Assembly (NCBI GenBank): GCA_020631855.1
Contig: JACKGU010000002.1
Coordinates: 159,447 to 223,446 of the forward strand
From: Candidatus Nomurabacteria bacterium
Lineage (GTDB): Bacteria; Patescibacteriota; WWE3; UBA101185; UBA10185
Length of the DNA stretch: 64,000 nucleotides
Direction of reading: 5' to 3'
Part shown: piece by piece, positions 1 through 61,376 of the stretch
How positions within the stretch are numbered: position 1 is the stretch's first letter
Layout: each line of letters begins with the position of its first letter
Program-made: the position numbers and the translations under genes
The notes under the pieces: model-generated
Database searches by the model: none
Told to the model about the DNA's origin: nothing
Seen by the model: the letters and a program-made list of their open reading frames with translations, nothing else

Positions 1-364
1 TTACTAAGTTTGCTTCTCTGTCGCCTCCAATTTCGTGATTACATATAAGATAATACACTCTTTTAATAGACTCTATTGGAAACTCTAACGTCATCATCAT
101 AGCCGATACGATATCAGCACCTCTGTGTGAATGCCTAATTTTATAGTCAATGAATTCCTCATTTTCTACTTGAGTCATCTTTTCAAACCAACACCTATCC
201 ATATCGTGTGCAAAAATTGCTAATTTCATTTCTTGAGTTGCATTTGGTTCTAATTTTAAGAGCCAATCAAGTGAGTTTTGGGCGTGAGTAATATAATCTG
301 GTCTACGAGATTCAGAAATTATCTTTTCTAATAAACTTTTTAAGTTAACCCATTTGTTTTCCAT
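1..364 (-). CDS. Hypothetical protein, possibly HD-domain-like; N-terminal part only, gene runs off the window start
   Basis: Reverse-strand ATG at 362-364. Translation MENKWVNLKSLLEKI...FAHDMDR...HSHRGADIV has H/D-rich motifs. No in-frame stop before position 1. Confidence 0.35.
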   Translation of the reverse strand, partial: MENKWVNLKSLLEKIISESRRPDYITHAQNSLDWLLKLEPNATQEMKLAIFAHDMDRCWFEKMTQVENEEFIDYKIRHSHRGADIVSAMMMTLEFPIESIKRVYYLICNHEIGGDREANLV

Positions 365-391
365 AATGATATTTTATCTTATTTATGCAAA

Positions 392-496
392 AGTTCGACT
401 TTCCCACCCACTATCTAAAATTAATGTCTGTTTTTAGTTGTTGTTAAAGGAAATAAAATTTGGTGGACTATTGTGTGCGATGTTGCGAACTTTTTT
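392..496. repeat. Copy A of ~110-bp intergenic element with tRNA-Phe 3'-end-like inverted termini
   Basis: Left end AAGTTCGACTTTCCCACCCACTAT, right end TGGTGGACTATTGTGTGCGATGTTGCGAACTTTTTT. Same blocks recur at 1260, 1995, 2876 and 3701. Confidence 0.8.
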
Positions 497-522
497 ACAA
501 AAAATAAAGTTATAATTACTTC

Positions 523-1254
523 ATGAGTCCAGAAGAATTTGTGATAAAAGTTACAGATGCTTATAAGAGTTATAAGGGCATTTTCAAAAATCATAAAAAT
601 GCGGAAAATTTGGCTCCAGAAGGTTCAGAACAATTTAAGTCACTATTTTTGTTTTATGTTATCCAATTGGATTATGCAACTAAGTCTCAAAGGCTTTATG
701 AAGGTGCACGCACTTTAATTTCAAAAAATCCTAGCTTTTTTATACCTAATAATATAGTAAATACAGATGAGGAGACTCTAAGGACTACGCTCACTAATTA
801 TCTTCATCCTAGATACATTAATGAAGCAGTTTTGCGTTATAAAACAAATTCACAAGTGCTAGAAACTAGTTATGAAGGTAATCCAATAAACATTTTTAAG
901 AATGCAGATTCTATAAAAGTTATCGAGAAAAGAATTAAAGATTTTAGAGGTTTTGGTCCCAAAATTGGCAACTTTTTTATTAGAACTATGATAAATACCT
1001 TTAATTTTCAATTTAATGATATTGAACTTATGCTACCACCTGTTGATATCCACGATGTCCGTATAGCGTATCTAATGGGTTTTATAGAAACTATGGATAT
1101 GACTCAAAAGAACATTATGAAAACTAAATTGCTTTGGAGCGCTGCCTGTAAAAAATCAAAGGTTAGTTGGCTAGATTTTGATAAGGCACTATGGTTATTA
1201 GGGTCAGAAGGTACTCCTAAAACTAAAGATGATATTTTGAAGTTGATTAGTTAG
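523..1254 (+). CDS. HhH-GPD superfamily DNA glycosylase-like protein
   Basis: RGFGPKIGNFFIRTM followed by LPPVDIHDVRIAYLMGF resembles the endonuclease III helix-hairpin-helix (GVGxKTA ... VDTHVxRVxxRLG). It is a paralogue of ORF 2112-2846. Confidence 0.4.
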   Translation: MSPEEFVIKVTDAYKSYKGIFKNHKNAENLAPEGSEQFKSLFLFYVIQLDYATKSQRLYEGARTLISKNPSFFIPNNIVNTDEETLRTTLTNYLHPRYINEAVLRYKTNSQVLETSYEGNPINIFKNADSIKVIEKRIKDFRGFGPKIGNFFIRTMINTFNFQFNDIELMLPPVDIHDVRIAYLMGFIETMDMTQKNIMKTKLLWSAACKKSKVSWLDFDKALWLLGSEGTPKTKDDILKLIS

Positions 1255-1259
1255 ATTAC

Positions 1260-1365
1260 TGTTCGAAATTCCCACTCTCTATCCAAAATCGACCATTCTT
1301 TTTAGTTGTAATAATGGGGACAAATCACTGGTGGACTATTATGAACGATGTTGTGAACTTTTTTC
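1260..1365. repeat. Copy B of tRNA-Phe-derived inverted-repeat element
   Basis: GTTCGAAATTCCCACTCTCTATCCAAAATCGA ... TGGTGGACTATTATGAACGATGTTGTGAACTTTTTTC. Confidence 0.8.
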
Positions 1366-1980
1366 TAGCACCAAATCCTCAAACTGTTTATACAATGAAT
1401 TAATATAGTTTAGTACTTCTGGATTTTTGCTAATAATTTCGATATTTTCTTTAATCTCGTCAGCAACTTCCTGTCCCAACTTAATTCTTTTTACAAATGT
1501 GTCAATACTTTTATTATCGGGTTGTCTCGAAAAGTAATCCTGAAGTGTTCTATGCCAATAATCAACTGTTTGCCTATTTAAACCTACTTCTAGTTCACTT
1601 TGTAATACATTGTTAAATAACTCTATATAGTTTTCCCAGTTATCTATTTTTGCATATAGTGTGCTGTCCTCAAGAAATTTAATAGATTGAGTTATAAATT
1701 TTGATTCAGGACATTTTGAATATAAATCGTAAGAAAGTAAAAAGTTTTCTCTAACTCTATCTACAATCGAATGGAGTTTTAATCCTGCAGTAAAAGACTT
1801 TTCTTGCTTTGTTTCATTAAGAGCTGCATTTGGGAAGTGTGTTTTATTTCTATCAATAGTACCCAAGTATCTAATGTCAGGTAGACTTGTCCCAATAATA
1901 AAGTCATTGAATGATTTATCTGAAAAATGTTGATTGTATATTTTCTTGGTTAGTACTATATGAGTAATTGGTGCTGCCAT
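1339..1980 (-). CDS. Hypothetical protein; 3' end reads into repeat copy B
   Basis: 213-aa ORF. Its C-terminal residues ...SSQHRS are encoded by the repeat, as in ORF 2966-3673. Confidence 0.45.
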   Translation of the reverse strand: MAAPITHIVLTKKIYNQHFSDKSFNDFIIGTSLPDIRYLGTIDRNKTHFPNAALNETKQEKSFTAGLKLHSIVDRVRENFLLSYDLYSKCPESKFITQSIKFLEDSTLYAKIDNWENYIELFNNVLQSELEVGLNRQTVDYWHRTLQDYFSRQPDNKSIDTFVKRIKLGQEVADEIKENIEIISKNPEVLNYINSLYKQFEDLVLEKSSQHRS

Positions 1981-1994
1981 AAATAAATTATAGC

Positions 1995-2112
1995 AGTCGA
2001 ACTAATTCCCACCCACTATATACAAAATCGAAAAATATTTGGTTGCTACAAGAGGATAAAACTGCTGTAAATTTCTATGGTAGAGTATTATGAACAACGT
2101 TGAGAACTTTTT
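1995..2112. repeat. Copy C of tRNA-Phe-derived inverted-repeat element
   Basis: AGTCGAACTAATTCCCACCCACTATATACAAAATCGAAAAATATTT ... TGGTAGAGTATTATGAACAACGTTGAGAACTTTTTT. Confidence 0.8.
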
Positions 2113-2846
2113 TACACTTGGTATTCAAATTTAGACCTACCCCAAAACCATAAAGGAGAGTGCATATCTATTGGACTAACTCCACTACCTTTTAATACTT
2201 CTCTCCAAATTCCTGAAATCTTTTCTCTAGACATTTCTTTTTCTGTATTTTGTATTACTCCTAGCTTAATAGATGCCTGAATCACGTGTGTATCTGGCGC
2301 AATTTCAATAAAATCTCTGTTTCTTAAAGGAACTTCGCAATATCTTTCCATAATGTATAACCAATAATTAAAGATTTTAGGTCCAGATAGGTATGGAAAT
2401 GATTTTTTACGCTCTTTTTGGATTACCTCTCTGATTTTTAGTACGTCATCTTCATATGTCTTAAAAAAGTTAGGAATGTCTTTTGCCAAACTTGAAAAAC
2501 CTTCAGAAATTCTATACCAAGTATTTATGTGTTTGTTTGATTGTAGAGCCAGTCTGTATCTAAGTAAATCATCCCTTATTGAATCCTCATTTTTTTCTGA
2601 TACCTTTAATAAATCAAAAACATAATTAGTATCTTTATCTAAGAAGGTTTTTGTGGCGGCTTCCCAAAGTTTATAACTATTTCTTTGATAATTTAGACTC
2701 ATTGGGAGAGTAAAATAAGCAAATTTAGTTGATAAGGAGTATCCCTCAAACGAGGGGTGTGCATCCTCTGGCATTACAATATTACCTAAAGTACCATCGA
2801 GATATGCCTTATATAAATTAAGACACTTGCTTTGAATGGAGCCCAT
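2112..2846 (-). CDS. HhH-GPD superfamily DNA glycosylase-like protein, paralogue of 523-1254
   Basis: LSGPKIFNYWLYIM ... IAPDTHVIQASIKLGVI ... PLWFWG aligns with GFGPKIGNFFIRTM ... LPPVDIHDVRIAYLMGF ... ALWLLG of ORF 523-1254. Confidence 0.4.
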   Translation of the reverse strand: MGSIQSKCLNLYKAYLDGTLGNIVMPEDAHPSFEGYSLSTKFAYFTLPMSLNYQRNSYKLWEAATKTFLDKDTNYVFDLLKVSEKNEDSIRDDLLRYRLALQSNKHINTWYRISEGFSSLAKDIPNFFKTYEDDVLKIREVIQKERKKSFPYLSGPKIFNYWLYIMERYCEVPLRNRDFIEIAPDTHVIQASIKLGVIQNTEKEMSREKISGIWREVLKGSGVSPIDMHSPLWFWGRSKFEYQV

Positions 2847-2875
2847 ATAAAGATTTTATAATGGATTTAGAATTA

Positions 2876-2993
2876 GTTCGACTCTCCCACCCACTATATA
2901 AAAAATCGAAAAATATTTTGTTGTTACAAAGGGATAAAGTAAGTATATATTTCTATGGTGGAGTATCATGAACGATGTTGTGAACTTTTTTTA
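2876..2993. repeat. Copy D of tRNA-Phe-derived inverted-repeat element
   Basis: AGTTCGACTCTCCCACCCACTATATAAAAAATCGAAAAATATTTTGTTGTTACAAAGGG ... TGGTGGAGTATCATGAACGATGTTGTGAACTTTTTTT. Confidence 0.8.
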
Positions 2994-3673
2994 TAATAAT
3001 ACTCTTTTTTTAGATACAACAAATGCATGAGATTGTGAATAAAATTATGTTTCAAACTCACCTGACTTTTGTACATTCTTAATGTTTTTAGTTTATGAAT
3101 AAGCTCTCCAAGTGACAAGGTTAATACAACATTTGCCTCAATAGGCACTACTTCATCAGGGTTTTTTGCCATTCTTAAAGAGTCTTTTGAGGGTTTGTAT
3201 CTTGAGGATACCGTGGAGTATAAGATAATATAGTTAAATTCACTTTGTAATTCTGTAACTATTTTGGAAACTACAATATGGTCAGGATGACCATATACCC
3301 CACAAGGTTCATATGTAACAACATGTGAGGGCTTGTATTCATTAATTTGGCTAGCAAGTGTTTGAGCTAGAGCATCGTCATTTTCAAGCATCCCATCAGT
3401 AAAATTTAGTAAAGTATAATCTCTAACACCCAGAAAACTCATTACATCATAAAACTCCTTCTCTCTAACTTTTGATAGATTCTCATTTTCAACTCCAAAT
3501 TTAAGTGTTGAGTTGTCACCTTTTGTTAGACAAACAACTTTACAGGCTATTTCACTATCTACTAAATGTTTAATTAAATTTGCACTCGCATATGACTCAT
3601 CATCGGGATGTGGATATACAAAAAGCACTTTTGAGTTTGTAGAAATATCTAATAAATTTAACCAGCTCGTCAT
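2966..3673 (-). CDS. PIG-L/LmbE family N-acetylglucosaminyl deacetylase
   Basis: VLFVYPHPDDES and GVYGHPDH(I) are hallmark LmbE/PIG-L motifs. The C-terminal ...SSQHRS is again encoded by a repeat copy. Confidence 0.7.
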   Translation of the reverse strand: MTSWLNLLDISTNSKVLFVYPHPDDESYASANLIKHLVDSEIACKVVCLTKGDNSTLKFGVENENLSKVREKEFYDVMSFLGVRDYTLLNFTDGMLENDDALAQTLASQINEYKPSHVVTYEPCGVYGHPDHIVVSKIVTELQSEFNYIILYSTVSSRYKPSKDSLRMAKNPDEVVPIEANVVLTLSLGELIHKLKTLRMYKSQVSLKHNFIHNLMHLLYLKKEYYYKKSSQHRS

Positions 3674-3700
3674 GATTTAATTTTAACTTATTTATGAGAA

Positions 3701-3769
3701 AGTTCGACTTTACCCTCCACTATCCAAAAGGGGTGTCTATTTTATGCTGTTGTTATAGGAAATAAAATT
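3701..3769. repeat. Copy E of the element, 5' block only, fused directly to the genuine tRNA-Phe 3' end
   Basis: AGTTCGACTTTACCCTCCACTATCCAAAAGGGG ... GTTGTTATAGGAAATAAAATTTGG then runs into the tRNA. In copy A the same GGAAATAAAATTTGGTGG is followed by the tRNA-mimic block. Confidence 0.7.
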
Positions 3770-3845
3770 TGGTGGGGAGGGTGGGAATCGAACCCACATA
3801 GCCGGTTTTTCAGACCGGTGCCGTGACCAACTTGGCTACCGCCCC
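3770..3845 (-). tRNA. tRNA-Phe (GAA), CCA encoded
   Basis: Reverse complement GGGGCGGTAGCCAAGTTGGTCACGGCACCGGTCTGAAAAACCGGCTATGTGGGTTCGATTCCCACCCTCCCCACCA. Anticodon loop CTGAAAA. Confidence 0.85.
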
Positions 3846-3970
3846 TTAATTTTCTTATTCTTTGCAATCAAACAACGATATTCTAGCTAGAATATGAATC
3901 ATAATATCAAATATACCTTGCGCTTACAAACCCTATTTGATAAGATCATTAAAGCATTAAACCAAATATT

Positions 3971-5362
3971 ATGAAAAGAACATACGTAATAGACACCCTT
4001 AAAGAGATAGGAAATACTGTAAAATTACAAGGTTGGGTCGACAGTAAGAGGGACCATGGAAAAGTAACATTTATAGATCTTCGAGATACAACTGGTGTTG
4101 TTCAGTGTGTAGGCGTGAAGATTATGTCTGAGCTTGGAACTGAGTGGGTTGTTGAGCTTGTTGGGGTTGTCAAGGCTCGCCCTGACAACATGCTTAATGA
4201 TTTAATGCCGACGGGCACTATAGAGCTTGAAGTTTTAGAATATAGTGTTCTAAATAAATGCAAAGAACTCCCCATCCCAATTAATACAGACGGTAAAGAG
4301 ATTAATGAAGAGAGCAGGTTAAAATACAGATACCTCGATCTTAGAAGACAAAGGATGGCAAAAATCATTAAACTAAGATCTAAGCTAAACGGCGAGTTTA
4401 GAAAGGCACTAGAAGAACACAGGTTTATTGAGGTAGAGACCCCAATGCTTACTAAATCAACCAAGGAAGGTGCAAGGGACTTCATTGTTCCTTCAAGGCA
4501 TAATCCCGGCAAATTTTACGCACTTCCACAAAGCCCTCAGCAGTATAAACAGCTTTTAATGACGGCAGGCGTAGAAAGATACTTCCAGTTTGCTAGATGT
4601 ATAAGAGACGAGGACCTAAGAGCCGACAGAGGCTATGAGTTTACACAGCTTGACCTTGAAATGAGCTTTGTATCACAAGAAGAAATAATGTCAGCAGTAG
4701 AAGATATAGTAAAGAAAGCCGTGACTTCAGTGGGCGGAAAGCTAAAAGAATCCACCTTTCCTGTTATAAATTACTACGACGCCTTAAATAAGTATGGGGC
4801 AGATAAATTTGATTTAAGGACAGACACAGAAAAGAAGGAAGGCGTTTTGGCTTTCGCATGGGTCATAAACTTCCCCTTCTTTAAGAAAGTAGATACCTCT
4901 GACGCAGCAGAAGTTCAGGACGGAAAAAGTGGGTGGACTTTTACTCATAATCCATTCAGCTCTCCAATACCAGAACACGTAGAGTGGCACCTTCAGCAAA
5001 AAAATATAGATAAGATAGTAACTGCTCAATATGATCTTGTTTGTAATGGGTACGAGGTTGGTGGCGGAAGTGTTCGAGCACATAACCCAGAAATTCTTAA
5101 AGCAACCTTCAAAATTATGGGTTATTCTGACGCAGAGATCCATGAGGGGGTTGGGCACATGTTAGAGGCGTTCGAACTGGGCACTCCTCCCCACGGAGGG
5201 ATAGCTTTAGGTGTGGACAGGCTTGTAATAATTCTTGCCGGAGAAGACTCGCTAAAGGAGTCTATAGCTTTTCCAATGACATCCTCAGGACGTACTGCTG
5301 TAATGGACGCGCCCAGCGAAGTGAGTGAAAAACAGCTAAAAGAACTGCACATAAAGCTATAA
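3971..5362 (+). CDS. aspS: Aspartyl-tRNA synthetase, short form lacking the bacterial GAD insertion
   Basis: Class II motifs FYALPQSPQQYKQLLM, ERYFQFARCIRDEDLRADR and EFTQLDLEMSF. The 463-aa length matches archaeal/ND-type AspRS. Confidence 0.8.
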   Translation: MKRTYVIDTLKEIGNTVKLQGWVDSKRDHGKVTFIDLRDTTGVVQCVGVKIMSELGTEWVVELVGVVKARPDNMLNDLMPTGTIELEVLEYSVLNKCKELPIPINTDGKEINEESRLKYRYLDLRRQRMAKIIKLRSKLNGEFRKALEEHRFIEVETPMLTKSTKEGARDFIVPSRHNPGKFYALPQSPQQYKQLLMTAGVERYFQFARCIRDEDLRADRGYEFTQLDLEMSFVSQEEIMSAVEDIVKKAVTSVGGKLKESTFPVINYYDALNKYGADKFDLRTDTEKKEGVLAFAWVINFPFFKKVDTSDAAEVQDGKSGWTFTHNPFSSPIPEHVEWHLQQKNIDKIVTAQYDLVCNGYEVGGGSVRAHNPEILKATFKIMGYSDAEIHEGVGHMLEAFELGTPPHGGIALGVDRLVIILAGEDSLKESIAFPMTSSGRTAVMDAPSEVSEKQLKELHIKL

Positions 5363-5397
5363 GAATAGTTGCCACATTTAACTTATAGTGGTAAAAT

Positions 5398-5856
5398 TTG
5401 GCAATGAGTTCTTACACAGATGGAGCAAAAAGCGGAAAAGCAGAGCAGCTTGGCGTTGCAGACCTTTACAGTTTTTTTCAAAGGTACGCAGAGGGCGAAA
5501 CAGTTACCCAAGATATTCTTTTTCCTCCTCTGTATGTAGATCGAGAACTTCTTTTTTGTAGAATAATATCAGATGAAAGTGGCCCCCGCCTTCGTGTTTT
5601 AAAATTTACTGGAGAAACATATGACTATAGCATTTCAAGTCGAGGCGAGGGCGAACTTGTATTAATGAGCGCGCTCGGCCCAAATTCATCTGGAGTTATT
5701 GCATACGCAAGTCAATGTGCAATATATAGAAGAGGCGCAGAAGCGGGAGAAAATAGCGCTCATCTTACAAATTTTTTATATGCTCATAAGAATAATCCGC
5801 AAACCGTTGCGGATCAATTCTCCACAAAAGCGGCATCAGAAGAAATACAAAGATAA
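5398..5856 (+). CDS. Hypothetical protein
   Basis: 152-aa ORF downstream of aspS with no recognisable motif. Confidence 0.35.
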   Translation: MAMSSYTDGAKSGKAEQLGVADLYSFFQRYAEGETVTQDILFPPLYVDRELLFCRIISDESGPRLRVLKFTGETYDYSISSRGEGELVLMSALGPNSSGVIAYASQCAIYRRGAEAGENSAHLTNFLYAHKNNPQTVADQFSTKAASEEIQR

Positions 5857-5858
5857 AT

Positions 5859-6455
5859 TTAAAAACTATTTATCTCAGGTAAAACTCCTTTCGGGGCATA
5901 CCAATCTGTAATATCGATGTTTTTAGCGGCGTTGCCATCTTTTATTTCAAAAACAACCGGAGAATGGTCCGTACATTCAATAGTAAGACCACATAGTACA
6001 GCTTCTGTATACGCGCCTGAGGTTTCCGGTTGATCTTTTACATAAGCAACCGCAATGTATTTACCGTCTGCAAGTCCTTGTAAAAAATACTCACTTTGGT
6101 TGTAGCTGGTTATGATGGTTACATTTTTGTTTTTGCTGTCTTGATTAATAAAATAAACCTCAAGTTGGGGGATGTTTTCGCCGGGATAACCTAGCCGGCC
6201 CGATACTGAACCCTTTTGAGTGAATTCCTCTGAAAACCTTAGTTCAAAGGACATGCCATCATCTTCAGGAATGTCCGTTTTTTTGATGCTTGTTTCGGAA
6301 ATATTTGTGGGTATAGCTTGTTCTGTTGTTTGTGTTACCTTTTTGATCTTAGAATTTTCCCTATAGTTGTAAAAGAAAGATAAATTAAGAAATATTACTG
6401 AGCCTAGAAGAAAAAAAACAACGCTTATAAGTGCGATTTTCTTAAACATTTTCAT
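5859..6455 (-). CDS. Secreted or membrane-anchored hypothetical protein
   Basis: N-terminal signal/TM MKMFKKIALISVVFFLLGSVIFL. Its stop overlaps the start of the upstream gene. Confidence 0.5.
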   Translation of the reverse strand: MKMFKKIALISVVFFLLGSVIFLNLSFFYNYRENSKIKKVTQTTEQAIPTNISETSIKKTDIPEDDGMSFELRFSEEFTQKGSVSGRLGYPGENIPQLEVYFINQDSKNKNVTIITSYNQSEYFLQGLADGKYIAVAYVKDQPETSGAYTEAVLCGLTIECTDHSPVVFEIKDGNAAKNIDITDWYAPKGVLPEINSF

Positions 6456-7165
6456 TAAGATAGTATAGCAAAGTTTTTAAGTATTTTCTTAACCACGAGC
6501 TCTTTGTTGTATTTTATGTTTAGTGAGTTTCCGGCATATTCAGGGTAAAGAGAAAGCCTATAATTTACGTCTTCCACATCAAGCTCTGAGTGAAATTGCA
6601 GGCCGTAGGTAGCACGACCTAATCTGTATGCCTGTATTTCGCACTTTTCACTAGAGGCAAGTAACGCTGCTCCTATAGGAAGTTTAACAACCGATGATTT
6701 ATGCCCCTCAATGGCATAAAAGTCTTTATCAATGCCCGAAAATATCGGGTCATTCAGACCATTCGCGTTCAGCGTTATTTTATTGAGCCCGGTCTCCGCT
6801 TTTGATTTATCCTCCACAACTTCCCCGCCATATAAATGCGCTATTAGCTGGTGTCCAAAACAAACCCCCAATAAAGGAATTTCCCTTTCAATAATATGCG
6901 ATAGAAGTGGTTTTGATTTTTCTACCATACCCTTAAATAAAGCTTTCTTTTTAGGATTTTTTTCTTCAAATCCCGATTCGCCGAGTCCGCCAATAATTAC
7001 TTGGGTTGATTTTGAAAGCAAGGGGAGCATATCTTGGACCGTAATGTGGGGGTTTGCAACATTGACAATTTGCATTTCATTATACTTACACATGTTTGCG
7101 GAATACATACATTTGACTTCGTGCCATCCTGACTGATCGGTTCTGTATTGAAGCAGTGTTAGCAT
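6455..7165 (-). CDS. Class I glutamine amidotransferase-like protein
   Basis: LLGVCFGHQL nucleophile-elbow motif with the catalytic Cys, and a downstream His (FHSELD). Confidence 0.6.
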   Translation of the reverse strand: MLTLLQYRTDQSGWHEVKCMYSANMCKYNEMQIVNVANPHITVQDMLPLLSKSTQVIIGGLGESGFEEKNPKKKALFKGMVEKSKPLLSHIIEREIPLLGVCFGHQLIAHLYGGEVVEDKSKAETGLNKITLNANGLNDPIFSGIDKDFYAIEGHKSSVVKLPIGAALLASSEKCEIQAYRLGRATYGLQFHSELDVEDVNYRLSLYPEYAGNSLNIKYNKELVVKKILKNFAILS

Positions 7166-7266
7166 ATTAAGGATTATAGCAAAGTTTTGTTGTTACTTAA
7201 ATCTATAGCAAGAGAAAAACAGATCGAGTTCATTTCTTTTCTTAAGTGTTTATTTTGGGTGTAAGG

Positions 7267-7340
7267 TGGAGCGAGAGACGGGACTCGAACCCGCGGCCTC
7301 TTCCTTGGCAAGGAAGCGTTCTACCACTGAACTACTCTCG
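7267..7340 (-). tRNA. tRNA-Gly (GCC), CCA encoded
   Basis: Reverse complement GCGAGAGTAGTTCAGTGGTAGAACGCTTCCTTGCCAAGGAAGAGGCCGCGGGTTCGAGTCCCGTCTCTCGCTCCA. Confidence 0.85.
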
Positions 7341-7515
7341 CATAGACGAATATAGTAGATTTTAGCATATTTCTATATTATATGTCGTATTTATATGCAA
7401 TGCCGGTGATGGGCGCTTTGCGTTGTAATAGAAGGTAAAATCCTTATATACTTCAACAGGATCGTTAATGTTTGTGTTTTGCGAGTTTTATTTATTTTTA
7501 CAGGATTTTCTAAAA

Positions 7516-8226
7516 TTAGCTCAATTTTCGAAGGAGCTTATCTTTAATTGCTTCAGAATAACTGGAGTAGTTTATCTTCTTGCTTTTGCTGGCCTCTTCG
7601 TCAGCTCTTGAAACTTTAGCCCACAAAATGTTTCCTAGCTCATTTACAGAGTTTTCTAAGAGCTCTGAAATCGATACGGTAAAACCGGCAACCGACACAG
7701 TTGGAGGGAATATTGTATTAAAAATGTTTATATCTTCTCTTTTCGCATTATCGAAAACTTCCGGGCTAAAATTGTACGGGATTCCTGATGCGTACTCTCT
7801 TACTTTTTCGCCCATTATTGTAGCTGTTTCGTAATCTACCCAAGGAAGGTCGAGCTCCTTATAATAAGCCTCGTCCTCTATAGAAATTAGGGGATTTGTT
7901 GTGATCACTATGCCTTCATCTCCGCTCAACCTAGAAACTATAGCGTTTCTGGAACTTGCCTTTATTCTCTGTACTGCGCAAACTGTTGCTATAGTTCCGC
8001 ACCCCACAGGCTCTCTCCCTAAATAGTGATTAATGTCTTTTTGATGATTTATGTCAAAAAAATATATAGCAATCTGCGGATGGTTTTTTAAAAGTGAAGA
8101 AATAATGTGAATTGCCCCTACTCTGTTTGGCAGACCGGTCATCTCGTCTGTTAACAGCGCCGCTTTATACATTGGCATTTTAGGAAAATATTTTGTATAT
8201 TCAGGTTTTTTGTATTTATTGGGCAT
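7516..8226 (-). CDS. Stand-alone degenerate GGDEF-domain protein (SGDEG in place of GGDEF)
   Basis: DEMTGLPNR ... IAIYFFDINHQKDINHYLG ... VSRLSGDEGIV tracks the diguanylate cyclase consensus LTGLxNRR ... DiDhFKxiNDxyGH ... RyGGDEF. Confidence 0.45.
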   Translation of the reverse strand: MPNKYKKPEYTKYFPKMPMYKAALLTDEMTGLPNRVGAIHIISSLLKNHPQIAIYFFDINHQKDINHYLGREPVGCGTIATVCAVQRIKASSRNAIVSRLSGDEGIVITTNPLISIEDEAYYKELDLPWVDYETATIMGEKVREYASGIPYNFSPEVFDNAKREDINIFNTIFPPTVSVAGFTVSISELLENSVNELGNILWAKVSRADEEASKSKKINYSSYSEAIKDKLLRKLS

Positions 8227-8249
8227 ATAACAAACTATCTATGCTATTT

Positions 8250-8324
8250 TGGAGCGAGAGACGGGATTCGAACCCGCGGCCTCTTCCTTGGGAAGGAAGC
8301 ATTCTACCACTGAACTACTCTCGC
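8250..8324 (-). tRNA. tRNA-Gly (CCC), CCA encoded
   Basis: Same scaffold as tRNA-Gly(GCC), with anticodon loop TTCCCAA. Confidence 0.85.
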
Positions 8325-8432
8325 GCTCGCAACTTTTTTATTGTATACCATGGCTTGAGATAGTAAAAGAGTCTGACTGCACCAAAATTTAAATTTGGAT
8401 TATAAGAAATATGTTTAGATACCAAGTCTTTA

Positions 8433-8519
8433 TGGTGGGCAAGACAGGACTTGAACCTGCACAGGATTTCTCCCACAACGACCTCAACGTTGCGCGTATA
8501 CCATTCCGCCACTTGCCCG
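8433..8519 (-). tRNA. tRNA-Leu (GAG), long variable arm, CCA encoded
   Basis: Reverse complement CGGGCAAGTGGCGGAATGGTATACGCGCAACGTTGAGGTCGTTG...GGTTCAAGTCCTGTCTTGCCCACCA. Confidence 0.8.
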
Positions 8520-8625
8520 TGTACGAGCATTATACAATAAAAAGCCCCTTACTCAAATAATTGTATATCTTTAAAACTATGTGCCCACTTAGTTTGTTTG
8601 TAAATTTGGGTAGATGTGGGCGCGC

Positions 8626-8713
8626 TGGTGCCGGAGATGGGACTCGAACCCACACTCCAATAATTGGAACAGCCTTCTGAAGACTGCGAGTCTGCCAATT
8701 CCTCCACTCCGGC
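8626..8713 (-). tRNA. tRNA-Leu (CAG), long variable arm, CCA encoded
   Basis: Reverse complement GCCGGAGTGGAGGAATTGGCAGACTCGCAGTCTTCAGAAGGCTG...GGTTCGAGTCCCATCTCCGGCACCA. Anticodon loop TTCAGAA. Confidence 0.75.
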
Positions 8714-8781
8714 CCACATATCAGTTATTTCAAGCAATAACTTACATAGCAAAAGGTATCTTATACTAATATTTTGCTAAT

Positions 8782-9522
8782 TTAAAGCCCAGAGACAGGG
8801 TCTTCTATATCTATCGAAGACTCAGGCATGCCTTGAATCTGAAACTTCAAGATAATGCTGTCATCAACATTAAATACGTTTAATAAAGACGGGGCCTCAA
8901 CTCCAAAATCCGACATTAGGACTGTGGCCTCTCCACTAACATCGAACGTACTATCATTGGTAACAGCGTTAACATCAAAAATAACCTCTTTCTTAACAGA
9001 GTTGATTTCCAACATTACAGGAATTGAAAATGAAAATTGACCTGATTCATAGTCTTCGGGAAGCTGAAAGCCATTAACTGATATTAGTACTGAGCTATCT
9101 TTAAATATTTTAAGAATGTCAGAGTCCCTTTGCGCAGATGGTGATTTTAGCATATCTATTGACAGGCTTGCATTCGCATATAACATCCTATCATCCGAAG
9201 TCACCCAAATTAAGACATCGGTTAGTTCTGCAGAGCCTTCTATTTGTTCTCCGGGCTTATTTAAAAACATTTTGTTAGCCCTATATCCGGCAGTCGCATC
9301 ACTAATTAAATATAGAACCGCATCATCTGGCAGGGCGTTGTTTTTATTGTAGCCGAGCTCCGAGGTCGCAGGTATGTTTATCTGTTTCATTACATTTGGA
9401 TCGTATCTATCGTCTTTGGTTGCTTTGTGCTTTTCTTTATTGGTCAGAGAATACACAACAAAAACTAAAGAGAGGAGTATTACTAGAGATAAGACTATAA
9501 TTGTGGGCTTATTGTTTTTCAT
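8782..9522 (-). CDS. Membrane-anchored hypothetical protein, possibly YceI-like
   Basis: Likely start at MKNNKPTIIVLSLVILLSLVFVVYS (TM anchor). Function unknown. Confidence 0.4.
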   Translation of the reverse strand: MKNNKPTIIVLSLVILLSLVFVVYSLTNKEKHKATKDDRYDPNVMKQINIPATSELGYNKNNALPDDAVLYLISDATAGYRANKMFLNKPGEQIEGSAELTDVLIWVTSDDRMLYANASLSIDMLKSPSAQRDSDILKIFKDSSVLISVNGFQLPEDYESGQFSFSIPVMLEINSVKKEVIFDVNAVTNDSTFDVSGEATVLMSDFGVEAPSLLNVFNVDDSIILKFQIQGMPESSIDIEDPVSGL

Positions 9523-9558: not shown

Positions 9559-10773
9559 ATGCAAAAAAATATAGTTATTGTTGGGGCAGGCTTTGCGGGT
9601 TTATATACCGCAAAATACTTGGAAAAAAGACTAAAGCTGCTTAAAAGTAAAAAGATTGAAGCGAGCATTGCATTAATTGACCAGAACAACTACTTTACTT
9701 TTACCCCTCTTCTTCATGAAGTTGCATCGGGTGGCCTCGAAAGAGAACTAATACTTCACCCCATAAGAGAGGCCTTTGGGACTGGCGTATCTTTTATTAA
9801 TTCTAAAGTTGAAAGGGTTCATTTAGGTAAGAATTTCGTAATGACCTCTGATAAAATTCAGCTGCCTTATGATTATCTGGTTTTAGCAACAGGTTCAGTT
9901 TCAAGCTTAAAATATGATGTTCTTAATACAGAAATATTTAAACTAAAGACTGTAAACGACGCATATAATATTAAATCGGCCATACTTACAGTTTTTGAAC
10001 GAAAACAAAATAGCCTGCTCAACCCCCCGATAAAAGTCGTTATTGTTGGTGGGGGACCTACCGGTGTAGAACTCGTTGCAGAGCTGGCTGAATACATGCA
10101 TGGAACTTTAGCTAGGCTTTATAAACATGTAGGTCCGGGACAAAACCAAATTTTATTATTAAATTCTGCGGGGCATCTTCTAGGATCTTTTGACAAGAGA
10201 CTGGGTGAAAGAATTGAAAAGTATTTGGTTCAGAAACTTAATGTAAAAGTAATAAATAACTCAAAAATTATAAGTATTGAAGATTTTGTAATTAAATCGA
10301 GTAATGGTGAAATAAGAGGAGCTGACGTAATAATTGACGCCTCGGGGGTGAGAGCAATGTACCCAGACTTAATTCCGGCAATAGACACGGACGAAAAAAA
10401 CAACATAATAACAGATGATTTTCTACGAATTCCGGAATATCCAAATGTTTATGCTTTGGGGGATGTTGGACAGTTTTACAAACTCGCACAGACAGCTGTA
10501 AATCAAGCTGAATATGCGGCAAAAAGCATTGTCAACTTAATGTTGAATAAACAGCCTAAACAATATACCTTCAAACCCAAAGGATTCTTACTGTCATTAG
10601 GGAAAAACTATGCTATAGGTTCTCTTTTTAACGTGCTGATATTTGGAAAGCCGGTTTGGTTTTTATGGCGTACGATATACTTATTTAAAGTTTTAAACTC
10701 TAGACACAGAATTAAAATTGCACTAAACTGGACATTGAATTTATTTTCAGATAGAGACACAACTAACATATGA
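9559..10773 (+). CDS. ndh: Type II NADH dehydrogenase (NDH-2) / FAD-dependent pyridine nucleotide-disulfide oxidoreductase
   Basis: IVIVGAGFAGLY ... ALIDQNNYFTFTPLLHEVASG, a second dinucleotide-binding site VIVGGGPTGVE, and a C-terminal hydrophobic tail. Confidence 0.7.
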   Translation: MQKNIVIVGAGFAGLYTAKYLEKRLKLLKSKKIEASIALIDQNNYFTFTPLLHEVASGGLERELILHPIREAFGTGVSFINSKVERVHLGKNFVMTSDKIQLPYDYLVLATGSVSSLKYDVLNTEIFKLKTVNDAYNIKSAILTVFERKQNSLLNPPIKVVIVGGGPTGVELVAELAEYMHGTLARLYKHVGPGQNQILLLNSAGHLLGSFDKRLGERIEKYLVQKLNVKVINNSKIISIEDFVIKSSNGEIRGADVIIDASGVRAMYPDLIPAIDTDEKNNIITDDFLRIPEYPNVYALGDVGQFYKLAQTAVNQAEYAAKSIVNLMLNKQPKQYTFKPKGFLLSLGKNYAIGSLFNVLIFGKPVWFLWRTIYLFKVLNSRHRIKIALNWTLNLFSDRDTTNI

Positions 10774-11870
10774 ACAAGCAGTTTTTACAGAAACTAACCG
10801 CCTTTCAGAATTCTTTTAATGCGAATTTCTTTTTAGAAATAGAAGATCTGGAAAAGCACATGATGGAAAATATGTCACATAGCCTGCAAGAGGTTTATCG
10901 TCGTTATAATAAATTATCCACTAACGGAGGAAAAAGAATAAGGCCCTTTTTAGCAGATGTTTCATACAGTGCTTTTGGTGGGCAAGACACAAAGAACATC
11001 AGAAAGCTATGCATTGCCGTGGAACTAACAAATTCCTACATACTGGCTTTAGATGACGACCTTGACAGAACACAACTAAGAAGAAATTCTCCCACAGCAA
11101 ACAAATCTATCTATGAGTATCTACTAACACTTCGTCCTACAACAGAAATGTCGTACGCACATCATTTAACCTCATCTTTAATATCTATTACGTCTTTAAT
11201 GTATATGCATTACATAAACTCTTTTATCATAGAGCAAACTACATTTGAAGAAAGTGTAAAGCTGCGCCTTATAGATACACTAGCTAAAATGATTTTTAAA
11301 ACAGCCCAGGGAGAAAACAGCGAAACAGTATTGATGCTAGATAGAGACATTTCAATTAAAAGATCACTTGATATTTTACTTACTAAAACCGGCTATTATA
11401 CAATTGAGACGCCAGTTAGAATGGGCTATTTTGCTACAGGAGAAGAAAACCCCAGTGTAACAAGCTCCTTAGAAGAATATGCTCACAATGTCGGTCTGGC
11501 TTTTCAATTAAACGACGACATAATAGGAATCTTTGGAGACACGAACATTGCAGGAAAAAGTAATTCCGACGACATAAAAGAAGGAAAAATAACACCTTTG
11601 GTTGCTTACATTTATGAAAATGGCTCATCTAAGGACATCTCCGTAATAGAATCTATATTGGGTCGGGCAGATATCACAGATGAGGAGGCTGACAGGTTTA
11701 GAGACGTGGTCGTGTCTTCGGGAAGTAAAGATTTTGTTAGCAATTTGGCCAGAGAATACGCAGATAAAGGCAAAGCCAGTATTAAAAATGCCGAAAAATT
11801 TGCAGTGAGTAAGGATGCATTTAATACTTTCTTTGAGTTAGCAGATTTTGTTATCGACAGGTCTTTTTAA
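10770..11870 (+). CDS. Polyprenyl diphosphate synthase (GGPP/FPP synthase family)
   Basis: First Asp-rich motif LALDDDLDRTQLRRNSPTANK and second FQLNDDIIGIFGD. Start overlaps the ndh stop (ATGA). Confidence 0.65.
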   Translation: MNKQFLQKLTAFQNSFNANFFLEIEDLEKHMMENMSHSLQEVYRRYNKLSTNGGKRIRPFLADVSYSAFGGQDTKNIRKLCIAVELTNSYILALDDDLDRTQLRRNSPTANKSIYEYLLTLRPTTEMSYAHHLTSSLISITSLMYMHYINSFIIEQTTFEESVKLRLIDTLAKMIFKTAQGENSETVLMLDRDISIKRSLDILLTKTGYYTIETPVRMGYFATGEENPSVTSSLEEYAHNVGLAFQLNDDIIGIFGDTNIAGKSNSDDIKEGKITPLVAYIYENGSSKDISVIESILGRADITDEEADRFRDVVVSSGSKDFVSNLAREYADKGKASIKNAEKFAVSKDAFNTFFELADFVIDRSF

Positions 11871-11926
11871 GCATGTGGCCCCATTTGATATCTGGCTATG
11901 TTGGAATCAACGTAAAACTACAGCCA

Positions 11927-12748
11927 CTATAGTTTAAACGATTTTCTTCTGTAGATAAGTAGTAACAATGCAATCAATATTTTTTCTTGTGTCTTAGTAT
12001 AAACTCGCCCTAAAAATGGATTCATATCTCTTTTTTTTAATTTAACCAGGATTTGAAAATATAGGTGTGCACTCAACAATATTGAGTATCTAGTCTTTTT
12101 AGGTAGTAGGTCGGCTCCTTTTATCCCTTCTTTGTAAAAGCACACTGTTTTATTAGCATAATCAAGCATCAGGTCGTGCAATTCGTTCGAAAAAGACCCT
12201 GAAAATATTTGTTCTCTTGTAACACCAAATGAGCCCATGTCTGTAGTAGATAGGTATATGCGGCCTCGTCTAGCGTCTTCCTGTATGTCCCTGAGTATGT
12301 TTGTCAGCTGCAAAGCAATACCAAGTTTAGCTGCATAATCATAAGTTTTTTTATCGGTAACCCCAAAAATATTACATATCATAATGCCTACAGTTCCCGC
12401 AACTTTATAGCAGTATGTGCAGACGTCGTTAAACTCATTAAAAGGCTTAAAGTCTGTGTCACTAAGAATTCCTGAAACAAGCTCTTCAAAATAATGGCTA
12501 TCGATTTTGCTACGATCCAAAAAATCTTTGAGATCTTTTGATTTTGCTATTTTAATTATTGCCTCGGGATTGTTGCCCTTTGCCATGTCGGCAATGTCAT
12601 CAATTTGCCTAAGAAAATGGTACAGATTAGCTATTTCAACTCTATATTGTTTTGGCAGAAACAGGGCAGAAAAGTAAAATGTTTTTGAGCCTATGCTAAA
12701 AGCCTGCAAAAACTTTCTTTGAATTCTTTTAGAAACCGAACTTTTCAT
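11927..12748 (-). CDS. Phytoene / dehydrosqualene / squalene synthase family protein (CrtB/CrtM-like)
   Basis: YCYKVAGTVGIMI and LQLTNILRDIQEDARRGRIYLS match the SQS/PSY family signatures. Confidence 0.7.
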   Translation of the reverse strand: MKSSVSKRIQRKFLQAFSIGSKTFYFSALFLPKQYRVEIANLYHFLRQIDDIADMAKGNNPEAIIKIAKSKDLKDFLDRSKIDSHYFEELVSGILSDTDFKPFNEFNDVCTYCYKVAGTVGIMICNIFGVTDKKTYDYAAKLGIALQLTNILRDIQEDARRGRIYLSTTDMGSFGVTREQIFSGSFSNELHDLMLDYANKTVCFYKEGIKGADLLPKKTRYSILLSAHLYFQILVKLKKRDMNPFLGRVYTKTQEKILIALLLLIYRRKSFKL

Positions 12749-12757
12749 TGTATTGGA

Positions 12758-14248
12758 TTACTTTTTATCGCCATAGTCATTTAATATTATTTTATGGGTA
12801 GCTTTTGCCGATAAAATAACTCCGGGCACACCTCCGCCCGGATGAACGCTTGCGCCAACGAAATATAAATTTTTAATATTTTCTGCCTTGTTATGGGGCC
12901 TGAGAGAGGCTATTTGATCGTACCTGGGCTGTAAGCTCCAGCATGCCCCAAGATAGTTATTGCGCTCAGTCCTGAAATTTAGCGGAGTAAAAACTTTTTG
13001 AACCTCAATATTATTTCTCAAATTCTCCAATCCAAAAGAATTTTCGAGAAAGTCTATAATTTTATTTGAGAAAGGCTCAGCTTCGACATCCCAGTCAATA
13101 TTTGCAGCAAGATTCGGGACAGGAACAAGCAGATACAGGCTCTCGCAACCCTCAGGAGCCATAGACTTATCGGTTCTACTTGGCGCATGCAGATACATAG
13201 AAAAATCATCAGGTAAAACCTTGCTTTTAAAGATGTCTTGAATCAATCCTTTGTATCGTTTTGAAATAATAAGTGTGTGATGCAACAACTGGGGGTATTG
13301 CTTTTTAATTCCCAGGTATAAAACAACACAGCTCATGCTATAGTGCATTTTCTTTATTTTTGAAGATTTCCACTTTCCTCTGCTTCTTCCTTTAAGTAAA
13401 TCTAAATAGGTGTTTGCAAAGTGTGAGTTAGATACAACAATGTCAAAACTATAAAACTCTGGTCCAACCCTTACACCTTTTGCGGCATCGTCCTCTACAA
13501 CTATTTCTGTAACTTCTGTGTTTGTTTTAATAACACCCCCGTTTTTTTTAAAAAGTTCGCTCAGAGCCTCCACAACGCTATACATGCCTCCTTTTGTAAA
13601 CCACACTCCCCCATCCTTTTCCAAGTAAGGAAGCATTAAAAACACCGATGGTGTAATAAAGGGGTTTCCACCAATAAATAATGCGTGGAATGAGAACAAG
13701 AATCTTGCTCTAAAGTCCTTGAAGAACCTTGCCACAACCCAATAAGAAGGAAGAATTGCCCCGGTTATTAGTGCTTTTGGAAAATAACCTATAAAATCGA
13801 ACATGCTTAAAAAAGGCTTAGAGCCCAGTCCGTCTAGGATTACCGATTTATACAAATTTTTTGAATAACGCATAAAGCTATAGTATGCCTTTCCATCTTT
13901 CGTATTGAATCTTGTAAGTTGTTCAACCATTTGGTTCTCATCTCCGGAATAGTCAATGTAGGTCTTATCGTGAAAGTAAATTCGATAATATGGGTCTAAA
14001 GCTTGTAGATCTAAATAAGACTTACGGTCTTCGCCAAAGAGTTGAAACAGTTCATCAATAAGGAAAGGTAGCGTAATAATGGAAGGGCCCATATCGAACG
14101 TGTATCCTTTTTCTTTGTATTGACTGGCATGGCCCCCAACAGAAGAATTTTTTTCAAAAATCGTGACCTTATAACCTTCGGATAAGAGCCTGAGCGCTAT
14201 GGAAAGTCCTCCAAAACCAGAACCTATAACAGCAGCCGTTTTATTCAT
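12758..14248 (-). CDS. Phytoene desaturase family oxidoreductase (CrtI/CrtN-like)
   Basis: N-terminal AVIGSGFGGLSIALRL FAD fold, ~496 aa, adjacent to the synthase gene. Confidence 0.65.
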   Translation of the reverse strand: MNKTAAVIGSGFGGLSIALRLLSEGYKVTIFEKNSSVGGHASQYKEKGYTFDMGPSIITLPFLIDELFQLFGEDRKSYLDLQALDPYYRIYFHDKTYIDYSGDENQMVEQLTRFNTKDGKAYYSFMRYSKNLYKSVILDGLGSKPFLSMFDFIGYFPKALITGAILPSYWVVARFFKDFRARFLFSFHALFIGGNPFITPSVFLMLPYLEKDGGVWFTKGGMYSVVEALSELFKKNGGVIKTNTEVTEIVVEDDAAKGVRVGPEFYSFDIVVSNSHFANTYLDLLKGRSRGKWKSSKIKKMHYSMSCVVLYLGIKKQYPQLLHHTLIISKRYKGLIQDIFKSKVLPDDFSMYLHAPSRTDKSMAPEGCESLYLLVPVPNLAANIDWDVEAEPFSNKIIDFLENSFGLENLRNNIEVQKVFTPLNFRTERNNYLGACWSLQPRYDQIASLRPHNKAENIKNLYFVGASVHPGGGVPGVILSAKATHKIILNDYGDKK

Positions 14249-50825: not shown

Positions 50826-50960
50826 TCGATGGTGAGGGCGGTGGGGATCGAACCCACGACACCCTGGTTAACGCCTAATTCGCAGGCTCATAAGGCGTTC
50901 ACTGAATCAGAACGATTCAGTGTAAAAGCCCTCTGCTCTACCACTGAGCTGTCTTATATA
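50826..50960 (-). pseudogene. Disrupted tRNA-Lys(TTT)-like copy: intact 3' half, ~52-bp insertion in the anticodon loop, degenerate 5' half
   Basis: The first 42 bp TGGTGAGGGCGGTGGGGATCGAACCCACGACACCCTGGTTAA match tRNA-Lys at 62782 with 2 compensatory T-stem changes. After a 52-bp insert, AAAAGCC and TGCTCTACCACTGAGCT (D-arm) follow, but the acceptor 5' strand cannot pair. Confidence 0.6.
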
Positions 50961-51014
50961 GAGAGTCTTAATGTTTTGGCTGATGTAGCTGTTTGTATGA
51001 TTGAACGTTAATCC

Positions 51015-51136
51015 GATACTACTATGTATAGTAGTATATATACTAGTATCGATAGTAGTATGCATAGTAGTATAAAAAATTCCGCGCAGTACTGTACCCA
51101 GTAGTACCTACAGTACTGTGTACACTAGTGTCATAG
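51015..51136. repeat. Iteron-like short repeats (ATAGTAGTAT x4 including one inverted; AGTACTGT-type x3)
   Basis: gATACTACTATgtATAGTAGTATatatactagtatcgATAGTAGTATgcATAGTAGTATaaaa ... CAGTACTGTACCCAGTAGTACCTACAGTACTGTGTAC. Confidence 0.65.
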
Positions 51137-51186
51137 ATATCGGCTATTGCTAATCTCTAGATGCCTGGCTTTAAGATATTAGAATC

Positions 51187-51477
51187 TTAATAAAATTTAT
51201 ACTTTTTTGGTTTTTTCTTGCCAAATATTTTCTTAAGCTCAGACTCTGTTTCATATCCGTTGTAGGTCTCGCTCAAAGCATACTCTACAAGCGTCTTAAA
51301 CGACTGTCCTGAGTTAGTTCTTAGATTAGATAGTATTTTCCACCACCCGATATCTAAACGTATTTGAAATGTCTTTTTTTGTAACTTTGTCGACATATAT
51401 AACCCCTCACGGGGTAGTTCCCCCAGCCGTTTCCTTTCTGGTGATTCACGTTCTTGCCTGTGCTTTTGTGTCCTCAC
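51187..51477 (-). CDS. Small basic protein, possibly a ribbon-helix-helix DNA-binding protein
   Basis: Internal start MSTKLQKKTFQIRLDIGWWKILSNL... has a beta-strand then helix pattern. Sits next to the iteron-like repeats. Confidence 0.3.
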   Translation of the reverse strand: MRTQKHRQERESPERKRLGELPREGLYMSTKLQKKTFQIRLDIGWWKILSNLRTNSGQSFKTLVEYALSETYNGYETESELKKIFGKKKPKKYKFY

Positions 51478-59246: not shown

Positions 59247-59249
59247 AAA

Positions 59250-60011: not shown

Positions 60012-60136
60012 AACACAGTTTTCAAAAAACCTGACCTGTTAAAACTGTCTACGGTACATCAAATCCAAAGCAAAAAATAGATTTTTAGACCTGCGGTGGT
60101 TTTCAAGATTGTTGTGCTTTAAAGCATAGACCTACC

Positions 60137-60330: not shown

Positions 60331-60399
60331 ACACATTTATTATTACAATAACTAAGCTATAGATGTTGAGGTATAATCTATTCATAAGGATTAAAAAAT

Positions 60400-61299: not shown

Positions 61300-61376
61300 T
61301 ACAACTCTCGCATTGCGAGAGTCCTGTATGGTTGCACACTTCCTAAAATCCTTTACCATGGAGCTGTAGCTATCCT

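Follow-up and report, generated by a model that had tools for sequence, protein, structure and literature searches.

What are the repeats that alternate with genes beside a tRNA-Phe gene in Candidatus Nomurabacteria: elements that inserted between genes already in place, or the joints of an assembled array? The question arises near the start of a 64,000-nucleotide (nt) stretch of forward-strand DNA (contig JACKGU010000002.1 of assembly GCA_020631855.1, positions 159,447 to 223,446; here called the window), where copies of a ~110-bp repeat lie between four complete genes and a fifth truncated by the window start. Patescibacteria, also known as the candidate phyla radiation (CPR), have tiny genomes, are mostly uncultured, and possess few recognized mobile elements. 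Our analysis suggests that this chromosomal locus is probably an array of mobile cassettes, most with a single gene, that arose through successive rounds of site-specific recombination at the tRNA-Phe 3′ end. The ~110-bp repeat itself is the junction between neighboring cassettes and not an inserted element.

A preliminary description of the window reported five repeat copies near positions 392, 1260, 1995, 2876, and 3701, and all five are present within a few bases of these positions (Table 1), four of them full and one partial and overlapping the 3′ end of tRNA-Phe. All copies read on the minus strand, which we call the tRNA orientation, and were scored with a repeat model (R1) of ~108 positions, in which a first part, P, covers positions 1 to 39 and a second part, P′, covers positions 30 to 108. 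The two conserved blocks noted earlier both occur well above chance (CGATGTTGNGAACTTTTTT, 5 matches against 0.14 expected; left block, 3 matches against 0.00 expected). In copy E, the real tRNA end does stand where the right block would be, and this copy also shares sequence with copy A (81% identity over 105 nt). The final six bases of the tRNA, CCACCA (window positions 3770 to 3775), are the core that the tRNA shares with the repeats; repeat E is fused directly to this CCA end and is an attL-like junction. In repeat D, the same core appears on the plus strand as TGGTGG (2956 to 2961) at the edge of the P block (2956 to 2991), with the Q block described below at 2876 to 2897. The GC content of the array stretch is 31 to 32%, compared with 35 to 42% in most other 2-kb segments. 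The anchoring tRNA-Phe has a C5:U68 mismatch in its acceptor stem, which is also found in the tRNA-Phe of loci L015, L036, and L049.

Read in the tRNA orientation, the repeat has three parts: P, a variable spacer, and Q. P, the right block of the preliminary description, is a near-invariant 36-nt sequence, AAAAAAGTTCGCAACATCGTTCATAATA(C/G)TCCACCA. P′ consists of a 40- to 60-nt spacer, of which there are several types, and the Q block ATAGTGGGTGGGAAAGTCGAAC, the former left block. Over 51 copies from 14 loci, the mean frequency of the most common base is 0.90 in P and 0.67 in the remaining repeat, and P stays near-invariant between genomes whose flanking core protein is only 56% identical. The two blocks differ in their relation to tRNA-Phe when judged against 5,000 shuffles. 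Q is an inverted copy of tRNA-Phe positions ~53 to 67 (15 of 15 matches with one 2-nt gap), a likeness reached by none of the shuffles, which upholds the earlier claim for this block. For P, the sharing of GTTCG and the terminal CCACCA with the tRNA stands, but nothing else is shared, and the similarity as a whole is not significant (3,322 of 5,000 shuffles reach it). The CCACCA common to P and the tRNA is the exact position of the junction.

The short inverted termini described earlier are not a general feature of the repeat. The pair AAAGTTCG...CGAACTTT is restricted to the short subtype (repeats A and B); the Q end of the long subtype (repeat C and others), AGTTCGAC, is direct rather than inverted, so that repeat C lacks a terminal inverted repeat. 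Two minus-strand open reading frames (ORFs), at 1339 to 1980 and 2966 to 3673, do end within copies, as had been noticed: P provides the stop codon for both, and both terminate in ...SSQHRS. At the other end of the repeat, ahead of a forward gene, the Q block usually runs straight into TGnTATAAT, with the ATG 6 to 8 nt later, whereas reversed genes have their own −10 box beside the following P. Because the TGnTATAAT box lies so close to the ATG, the spacing suggests a leaderless mRNA. Judging from the motif, each cassette probably relies on a TGnTATAAT box of its own for expression, and its expression would not depend on its position in the array. Q may act as an accessory site in recombination, as a shared regulatory site, or as both.

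Single-stranded DNA folds of both strands of the repeat were no better than those of shuffled sequences (z, −1.8 to +1.9), and the consensus structure amounts to six invariant pairs joining CCACC with GGTGG (−2.9 kcal/mol) with no covariation or compensatory change. Rfam matched only tRNAs in window positions 1 to 9000 and assigned no family to the repeat. No enrichment of sigma-70 promoters or terminators was seen in positions 1 to 4000, and a terminator scan found none within the repeats. A short antisense ORF in P (MNDVVNFF...) was judged by eye not to be conserved as a protein.

The array extends beyond the window. By way of an exactly matching protein, we identified the source-strain locus (L001) on contig JACKGV010000006.1 of assembly GCA_020631795.1 (629 kb), which is read in the tRNA orientation and on which a window position x corresponds to 13674 − x; other samples yielded this locus as well. 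There, the array runs ~4.6 kb past window position 1 and comprises 10 cassettes and 10 repeats in total. Distal of the 10th cassette, a degenerate repeat is followed by core genes encoding a 206-amino-acid (aa) protein, a beta-lactamase-like protein, and an M23 protein. No repeat was found outside the array in ~73 kb of the source genome (the window and a further ~9 kb).

We searched 185,579 species genomes with a degenerate form of P and obtained 15 loci, 13 of them in Patescibacteria (labeled WWE3, "Saccharibacteria," or unclassified). The other matches, in Segetibacter and in a Verrucomicrobia metagenome-assembled genome (MAG), are chance matches that did not satisfy the full model. A metagenome scan yielded ~15 further array fragments; a set of hits in 22%-GC metagenome sequences (L024, L025, L029, L031, L035, L038, L041, L044, L046, and L048) were weak single matches in unrelated DNA and were discarded. 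A viral contig collection gave no hits for the P pattern or for two patterns of the X units described below.

Every copy in a locus is oriented like its tRNA, and in the 13 loci where the proximal end of the array is visible, it is always the CCA end of a tRNA, with the anchor tRNAs scoring as intact. The association with tRNA-Phe proposed earlier thus holds for 11 of the 13 anchored loci, and the remaining 2 are anchored at tRNA-Leu(UAA) (Table 1); one of these, L016, carries an additional unit at its own tRNA-Phe. At the proximal end, there is only P′ (R1 positions 30 to 108), overlapping the CCACCA of the tRNA, while the distal end is often P alone (R1 positions 1 to 39) followed by unrelated DNA (L015 at position 4271, L007 at position 5556, L011, and L017). 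The simplest array, L007, consists of tRNA-Leu, P′, a kinase gene, P, and the native flank, which is an attL/attR signature. The repeat has no significant fold, contains no terminator, and in the ~73 kb of the source genome searched is not dispersed but confined to the array; a widespread terminator or repetitive extragenic palindromic (REP)-like element, considered in the preliminary description, would instead form a stable hairpin (with a T run in the case of a terminator) and be scattered across the genome.

The boundaries of the mobile unit are best seen where one cassette occurs in two arrays, which we detected by comparing all ORFs with one another. The APH cassette stands eighth in L001 but first, beside tRNA-Phe, in L020 (88% amino acid identity). 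The nucleotide homology between the two starts exactly at CCACCA, with P to its left in one case and the body of tRNA-Phe in the other, and stops no more than ~7 bases past the next CCACCA, in an A-rich run; the flanks beyond are unrelated. Homology between the AGOG-like cassette 2 and its 82% identical homologue in the L045 array also ends at CCACCA. Cassettes common to different arrays include APH, AGOG-like, HD_3, 122-aa, and 107-aa cassettes. The repeat as previously delimited is in the wrong register: the mobile unit runs from CCACCA to CCACCA and takes in the right portion of one repeat, a gene, and the left portion of the repeat after it. A comparison of loci across genomes agrees with this picture in that cassette content varies between conserved flanks: L028 and L036 have 3 kb of distal flank at 99.6% identity and no cassette in common, and L001 and L015 share the distal flank with the beta-lactamase-like and M23 genes but carry 10 and 3 cassettes, respectively, which differ. 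Together with the tRNA anchoring at 13 loci and the split at CCACCA, these portable cassettes support the earlier suggestion that a cassette-like array formed by serial insertion at a specific site in tRNA-Phe. A hybrid site observed in L012 (positions 4122 to 4165) joins the first 18 nt of P to the final 17 nt of tRNA-Phe (GTTCACAACATCC-TCCCACCCTCCCCACCA).

Across 47 units delimited from CCA to CCA, the median length is 802 bp, 39 of the units hold one ORF, and ~75% of the ORFs point in the tRNA direction. The cargo across arrays includes PIG-L, HhH glycosylases, S51, GDSL, APH, HD, NUDIX, RibD_C/DHFR-like, and Ppx-GppA proteins, as well as isochorismatase, PNPOx-like, and radical-SAM/SPL proteins, a kinase, an MFS protein, and a PIN toxin module. 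Genes for HhH (AGOG/OGG-like) glycosylases recur in many arrays (L013, L028, L045, and L036), and two are present in the array studied here. Homologues of the 243-aa glycosylase in L013 and L028 are 62 to 67% identical to it, and the gene is reversed in every array that carries one. A homologue in L055, likewise reversed, lies directly against the tRNA-Phe CCA but has no recognizable P, and those in L052, L054, and L057/L058 are ordinary genes of the chromosome that lack repeats.

These observations can be joined in a mechanism. The cassette unit comprises CCACCA, P′ (the spacer, Q, and a putative extended −10 promoter), the gene, and a 36-nt P that ends in the next CCACCA, and a circular form of it would carry one complete P-CCACCA-P′ site. 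A recombinase encoded elsewhere would exchange strands within or beside the 6-bp CCACCA core, the target core being the last bases of tRNA-Phe, in some genomes those of tRNA-Leu(UAA), or an existing P. With the core located at the extreme end of the tRNA, insertion would leave the tRNA intact, and since the tRNA-P′ junction or any internal P-CCACCA would accept the next cassette, cassettes would pile up downstream of the tRNA. Serial conservative recombination of this kind would give rise to hybrid tRNA-P′ and P-flank ends, periodic repeats, a single orientation, and portable units. What we observe directly is the anatomy of the units, their anchoring at tRNAs, the CCACCA boundaries, the recurrence of cassettes in different arrays and positions, and the different cassette content between near-identical flanks; from this we infer a circular intermediate, the direction in which arrays grow, the enzyme, and the function of the promoter.

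Several observations weigh against this explanation. The 10 kb upstream and 2.4 kb downstream of the L001 array contain no recombinase gene, and none was found in or beside the arrays of L012, L013, L015, L016, L018, L021, L036, and L056. No circular cassette contigs were seen among the loci examined, and no empty-site variant of the same strain was found; six source-strain contigs all carry the same array. The site itself is unusual. Sequence to the right of CCACCA is not conserved, and the best dyad symmetry score around the core is no better than elsewhere; a one-sided site without a dyad is atypical for the cores of tyrosine or large serine recombinases. Moreover, tRNA-Leu(GAG) in the window ends in CCCACCA and has no repeat or cassette downstream, so that either a target requires more than the core or this site merely happens to be empty. 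Finally, P′ spacer types are reshuffled independently of Q and the gene, and the divergence between L028 and L036 ends at the −10 box of the flanking gene and not at CCACCA. Because of this mosaicism and this endpoint, we conclude that homologous recombination contributes as well.

Could homologous recombination then suffice? CPR bacteria are thought to rely on natural transformation, and cassettes might be swapped by RecA-dependent exchange after uptake with no dedicated recombinase, the repeats serving as homology and as promoter (Q and −10) and gene-end (P) modules. The mosaic spacers, the exchange of whole arrays between near-identical flanks, and the lack of a recombinase adjoining any array examined all fit such a scheme, and the usual position of Q before TGnTATAAT and ATG makes it plausible that part of the repeat is regulatory. 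We nevertheless consider it unlikely as a full account: the tRNA/P′ and P/flank junctions share 6 nt, which is far too little for homologous exchange, the junction base is identical in all 13 loci, which involve two different tRNAs, and homology arms would not require a P that is near-invariant across species whose proteins are ~56% identical. A different origin would be the decay of successive tRNA-targeting islands (tycheposon- or prophage-like), each once equipped with an integrase, with the repeats as old att scars. Non-coding units that end in 15- to 19-nt copies of the tRNA-Phe 3′ end resemble attR scars, the start of P (GTTCG-CAA) resembles the start of these attR-like scars, and a classical large serine recombinase island occupies tRNA-Lys in the same window. 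This origin is quite improbable in light of the uniformity of the units, typically one ORF with a median of 802 bp, the absence of an integrase fragment from all arrays, the identical cassette boundaries in different genomes, and the nature of P, which is conserved rather than decaying and is not a tRNA fragment (only CCACCA matches).

The remaining alternatives fare worse still. The idea that the ~110-bp repeat is a mobile non-autonomous element, such as a miniature inverted-repeat transposable element (MITE) or a tRNA-derived element resembling a short interspersed nuclear element (SINE), that inserted between pre-existing genes had been raised in the preliminary description, and it draws on the short inverted termini of the short subtype and the tRNA-derived Q. 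We reject this reading as very improbable, given a long subtype that has no inverted termini, the absence of target-site duplications, a single orientation with copies only in arrays at tRNA ends and none dispersed through the ~73 kb searched, P and P′ halves that are found separately at array ends, and genes that differ between strains while the repeats stay. Equally remote is CCA-dependent reverse transcription, in which a retroplasmid-like enzyme would copy P-CCACCA RNAs and jump to the CCA end of either tRNA-Phe or a second cassette RNA, making head-to-tail joints exactly after CCA. This would suit a site that is conserved only 5′ of the joint, joints that all follow CCA, and tRNA-like ends inside arrays; against it, neither ~90 kb of the source genome nor any of the arrays showed a reverse transcriptase, P does not fold like a tRNA, and transcript-derived copies would not explain cassettes with their own putative promoters and reversed genes.

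If site-specific recombination built the array, its enzyme would be encoded elsewhere. No integrase was found among the ~40 cassette and flank proteins scanned within arrays, and in the flanks, where the preliminary description advised looking for one, none was found from ~7 kb before the window start, through the 64-kb window, to ~9 kb past its end, apart from a 510-aa large serine recombinase tied to a tRNA-Lys island, which is the sole recombinase in this region. In L056 (WWE3 MAG_289), a large serine recombinase 61% identical to it (N-terminal 259 aa) lies ~7.5 kb from tRNA-Phe, beside NmeDI_C and YaaC genes and on the opposite side from the cassette array. Its presence near tRNA-Phe in an array-bearing genome is suggestive but proves nothing about the array enzyme.

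The tRNA-Lys island is a separate element, integrated in tRNA-Lys(UUU), that carries defense genes along with its large serine recombinase. The recombinase is absent from public gene calls, and the final ~45 codons of its gene overlap the intact tRNA-Lys in antisense. At the far end of the island lies a partial copy of tRNA-Lys with a 53-nt insertion at the anticodon loop and compensatory differences in the T stem relative to the intact copy.

Some arrays also contain non-coding units, here called X units, between P-CCACCA and P′. They consist of an intrinsic-terminator hairpin, 60 to 120 nt that include GAGCGAAGCGArrGG, and a 15- to 19-nt copy of the tRNA-Phe 3′ end, and those of L001 and L013 are 92% identical over 61 nt. 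No Rfam match and no significant fold were found for them. They may be attR scars of another tRNA-Phe-targeting element, with a crossover in the T loop.

Elsewhere in the window, carotenoid/squalene-type genes lie near the tRNA cluster. In a sister strain with an identical cassette array (L002, positions 1 to 6120), genes for a 1,534-aa LPD38 protein, small ORFs, and a MazE antitoxin replace them.

Table 1. Features of the array, its loci, and neighboring elements (positions are those of the window unless a locus is named)
Feature	Position	Strand	Details
tRNA-Phe(GAA), array anchor	3770..3845	-	ARAGORN; Rfam tRNA, 66.4 bits
Repeat E, partial, P′ half only (spacer and Q block)	3700..3776	-	R1 30-106, 36.4 bits
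Repeat D, long subtype	2872..2991	-	R1 1-108, 86.3 bits
Repeat C, long subtype	1992..2113	-	R1, 82.4 bits; P block 2078-2113
Repeat B, short subtype	1258..1364	-	R1, 85.1 bits; P block 1329-1364
Repeat A, short subtype	390..496	-	R1, 89.5 bits; P block 461-496
Cassette 1, PIG-L family deacetylase, 235 aa	2966..3673	-	ORF; Pfam PF02585; unit 2956-3769
Cassette 2, AGOG-like HhH DNA glycosylase, 244 aa	2112..2846	-	Weak Pfam AGOG match, E = 3e-5; unit 2078-2955
Cassette 3, 213-aa protein	1339..1980	-	ORF; no Pfam match; unit 1329-2077
Cassette 4, second AGOG-like glycosylase, 243 aa, reversed relative to array	523..1254	+	Pfam AGOG, E = 0.0018; unit 461-1328
Cassette 5, DUF4202, 186 aa, cut by window start	1..364	-	L001 gene table
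Cassettes 6 to 10 of L001, outside the window			S51 peptidase, GDSL lipase, APH kinase, HD (reversed), HD_3
X unit, L001	16565-16722		~2.9 kb beyond window start
X unit, L013	5085-5220
X unit, L017	146-303
X unit, L036	6771-6933	-
Arrays anchored at tRNA-Phe (11)			L001, L012, L013, L014, L015, L020, L021, L027, L030, L036 (identical to L050), L049
Arrays anchored at tRNA-Leu(UAA) (2)			L007, L016
tRNA-Leu(GAG)	8433-8518		Ends in CCCACCA
Carotenoid/squalene-type genes	9559-14248		NAD(P)/FAD oxidoreductase, polyprenyl synthase, SQS_PSY, amino oxidase
tRNA-Lys(UUU) island	50828-62909
Partial tRNA-Lys copy	~50828-50960		Far end of island
HsdM, type I restriction-modification	52097-53674		tRNA-Lys island
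HsdS, type I restriction-modification	53674-54825		tRNA-Lys island
UvrD-like helicase	54826-56451		tRNA-Lys island
HsdR, type I restriction-modification	56448-59246		tRNA-Lys island
PDDEXK nuclease	59250-60011		tRNA-Lys island
Mrr	60400-61299		tRNA-Lys island
Large serine recombinase, 510 aa	61377-62909		tRNA-Lys island
Intact tRNA-Lys	62782-62856
Large serine recombinase, L056	19948-20735

If the locus is indeed such an array, an integron-like store at tRNA-Phe would be a concrete route of gene flux, with fast strain turnover, that is common to several CPR lineages, and it would represent a convergent counterpart of integrons built from different parts. Its cargo (APH kinase, deacetylase, hydrolases, NUDIX, DNA glycosylases, and toxin-antitoxin) would offer a first view of the genes traded by these organisms. 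The sites are short, sharply defined, and highly conserved, which makes the system directly testable, and it could yield a site-specific recombination tool that targets a tRNA end without damage. A bolder interpretation, possible but doubtful at present, is that the arrays are a CPR-specific gene-capture platform that is independent of integrons, with the tRNA 3′ end as the entry point, a one-sided, non-palindromic 36-bp cassette site, and an enzyme class new to cassette arrays, such as a single-strand nickase/transferase of the HUH type or another type, or else a divergent recombinase able to recognize the tRNA acceptor end. The tRNA-derived Q would then be an accessory or regulatory site that also gives each cassette its predicted leaderless promoter.

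We found no published description of such arrays, in Patescibacteria or elsewhere, in the literature searched, the coverage of which was incomplete, so this is absence of evidence only. Among known systems, the tycheposons of Prochlorococcus encode a tyrosine or large serine recombinase of their own and in many cases replication genes; their multigene cargo can reach 10 kb or more, and they are flanked by partial tRNA sequences of ~40 nt (bioRxiv 10.1101/2020.12.28.424599). The arrays resemble them in that the tRNA stays intact upon insertion, new arrivals would displace older ones outward, flexible genes gather at a few tRNAs, and partial tRNA copies lie inside. In contrast, the units here are single genes of ~0.8 kb, none of which encodes an integrase, and the site is a 36-nt non-tRNA block that shares the 6-nt CCACCA (plus GTTCG) with the tRNA, with only a minority of non-coding units ending in tRNA-Phe copies. 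Arrays of modules bounded by short recombination sites, in which modules lacking a recombinase are moved in trans, are also known from staphylococcal cassette chromosome (SCC) islands and Acinetobacter plasmids. The SCC islands, which share with our arrays an insertion at the 3′ end of a conserved gene, consist of units of many kilobases that are inserted at rlmH by Ccr large serine recombinases and flanked by ~20-bp direct repeats within rlmH. The pdif modules of Acinetobacter plasmids depend on XerC/D and have inverted XerC/XerD sites with 11-6-11 symmetry, whereas the sites described here are all direct, with neither dyad symmetry nor alternating orientation.

The closest parallel is with integrons and, given that no integrase is next to the array, with clusters of attC sites lacking integron-integrases (CALINs). 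Like these, the arrays are long and one-directional, with mostly single-ORF cassettes of ~0.5 to 1.1 kb and a site repeat of ~110 bp; the same cassette occurs in different arrays and positions, and occasional cassettes are inverted, encode toxin-antitoxin modules, or are non-coding. The cargo likewise consists of small accessory enzymes (here APH, hydrolases, NUDIX, and a DHFR-like protein). The parts, however, are different. There is no adjacent IntI-type tyrosine recombinase in the arrays examined here, and the repeat has no attC hairpin, no R″/L″-L′/R′ boxes, and no GTTRRRY crossover, its boundary being a CCACCA conserved on the 5′ side only. A tRNA 3′ end plays the role of attI, the hosts are Patescibacteria, and in place of a common Pc, each cassette has a predicted promoter of its own. 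The array works like an integron but is not one.

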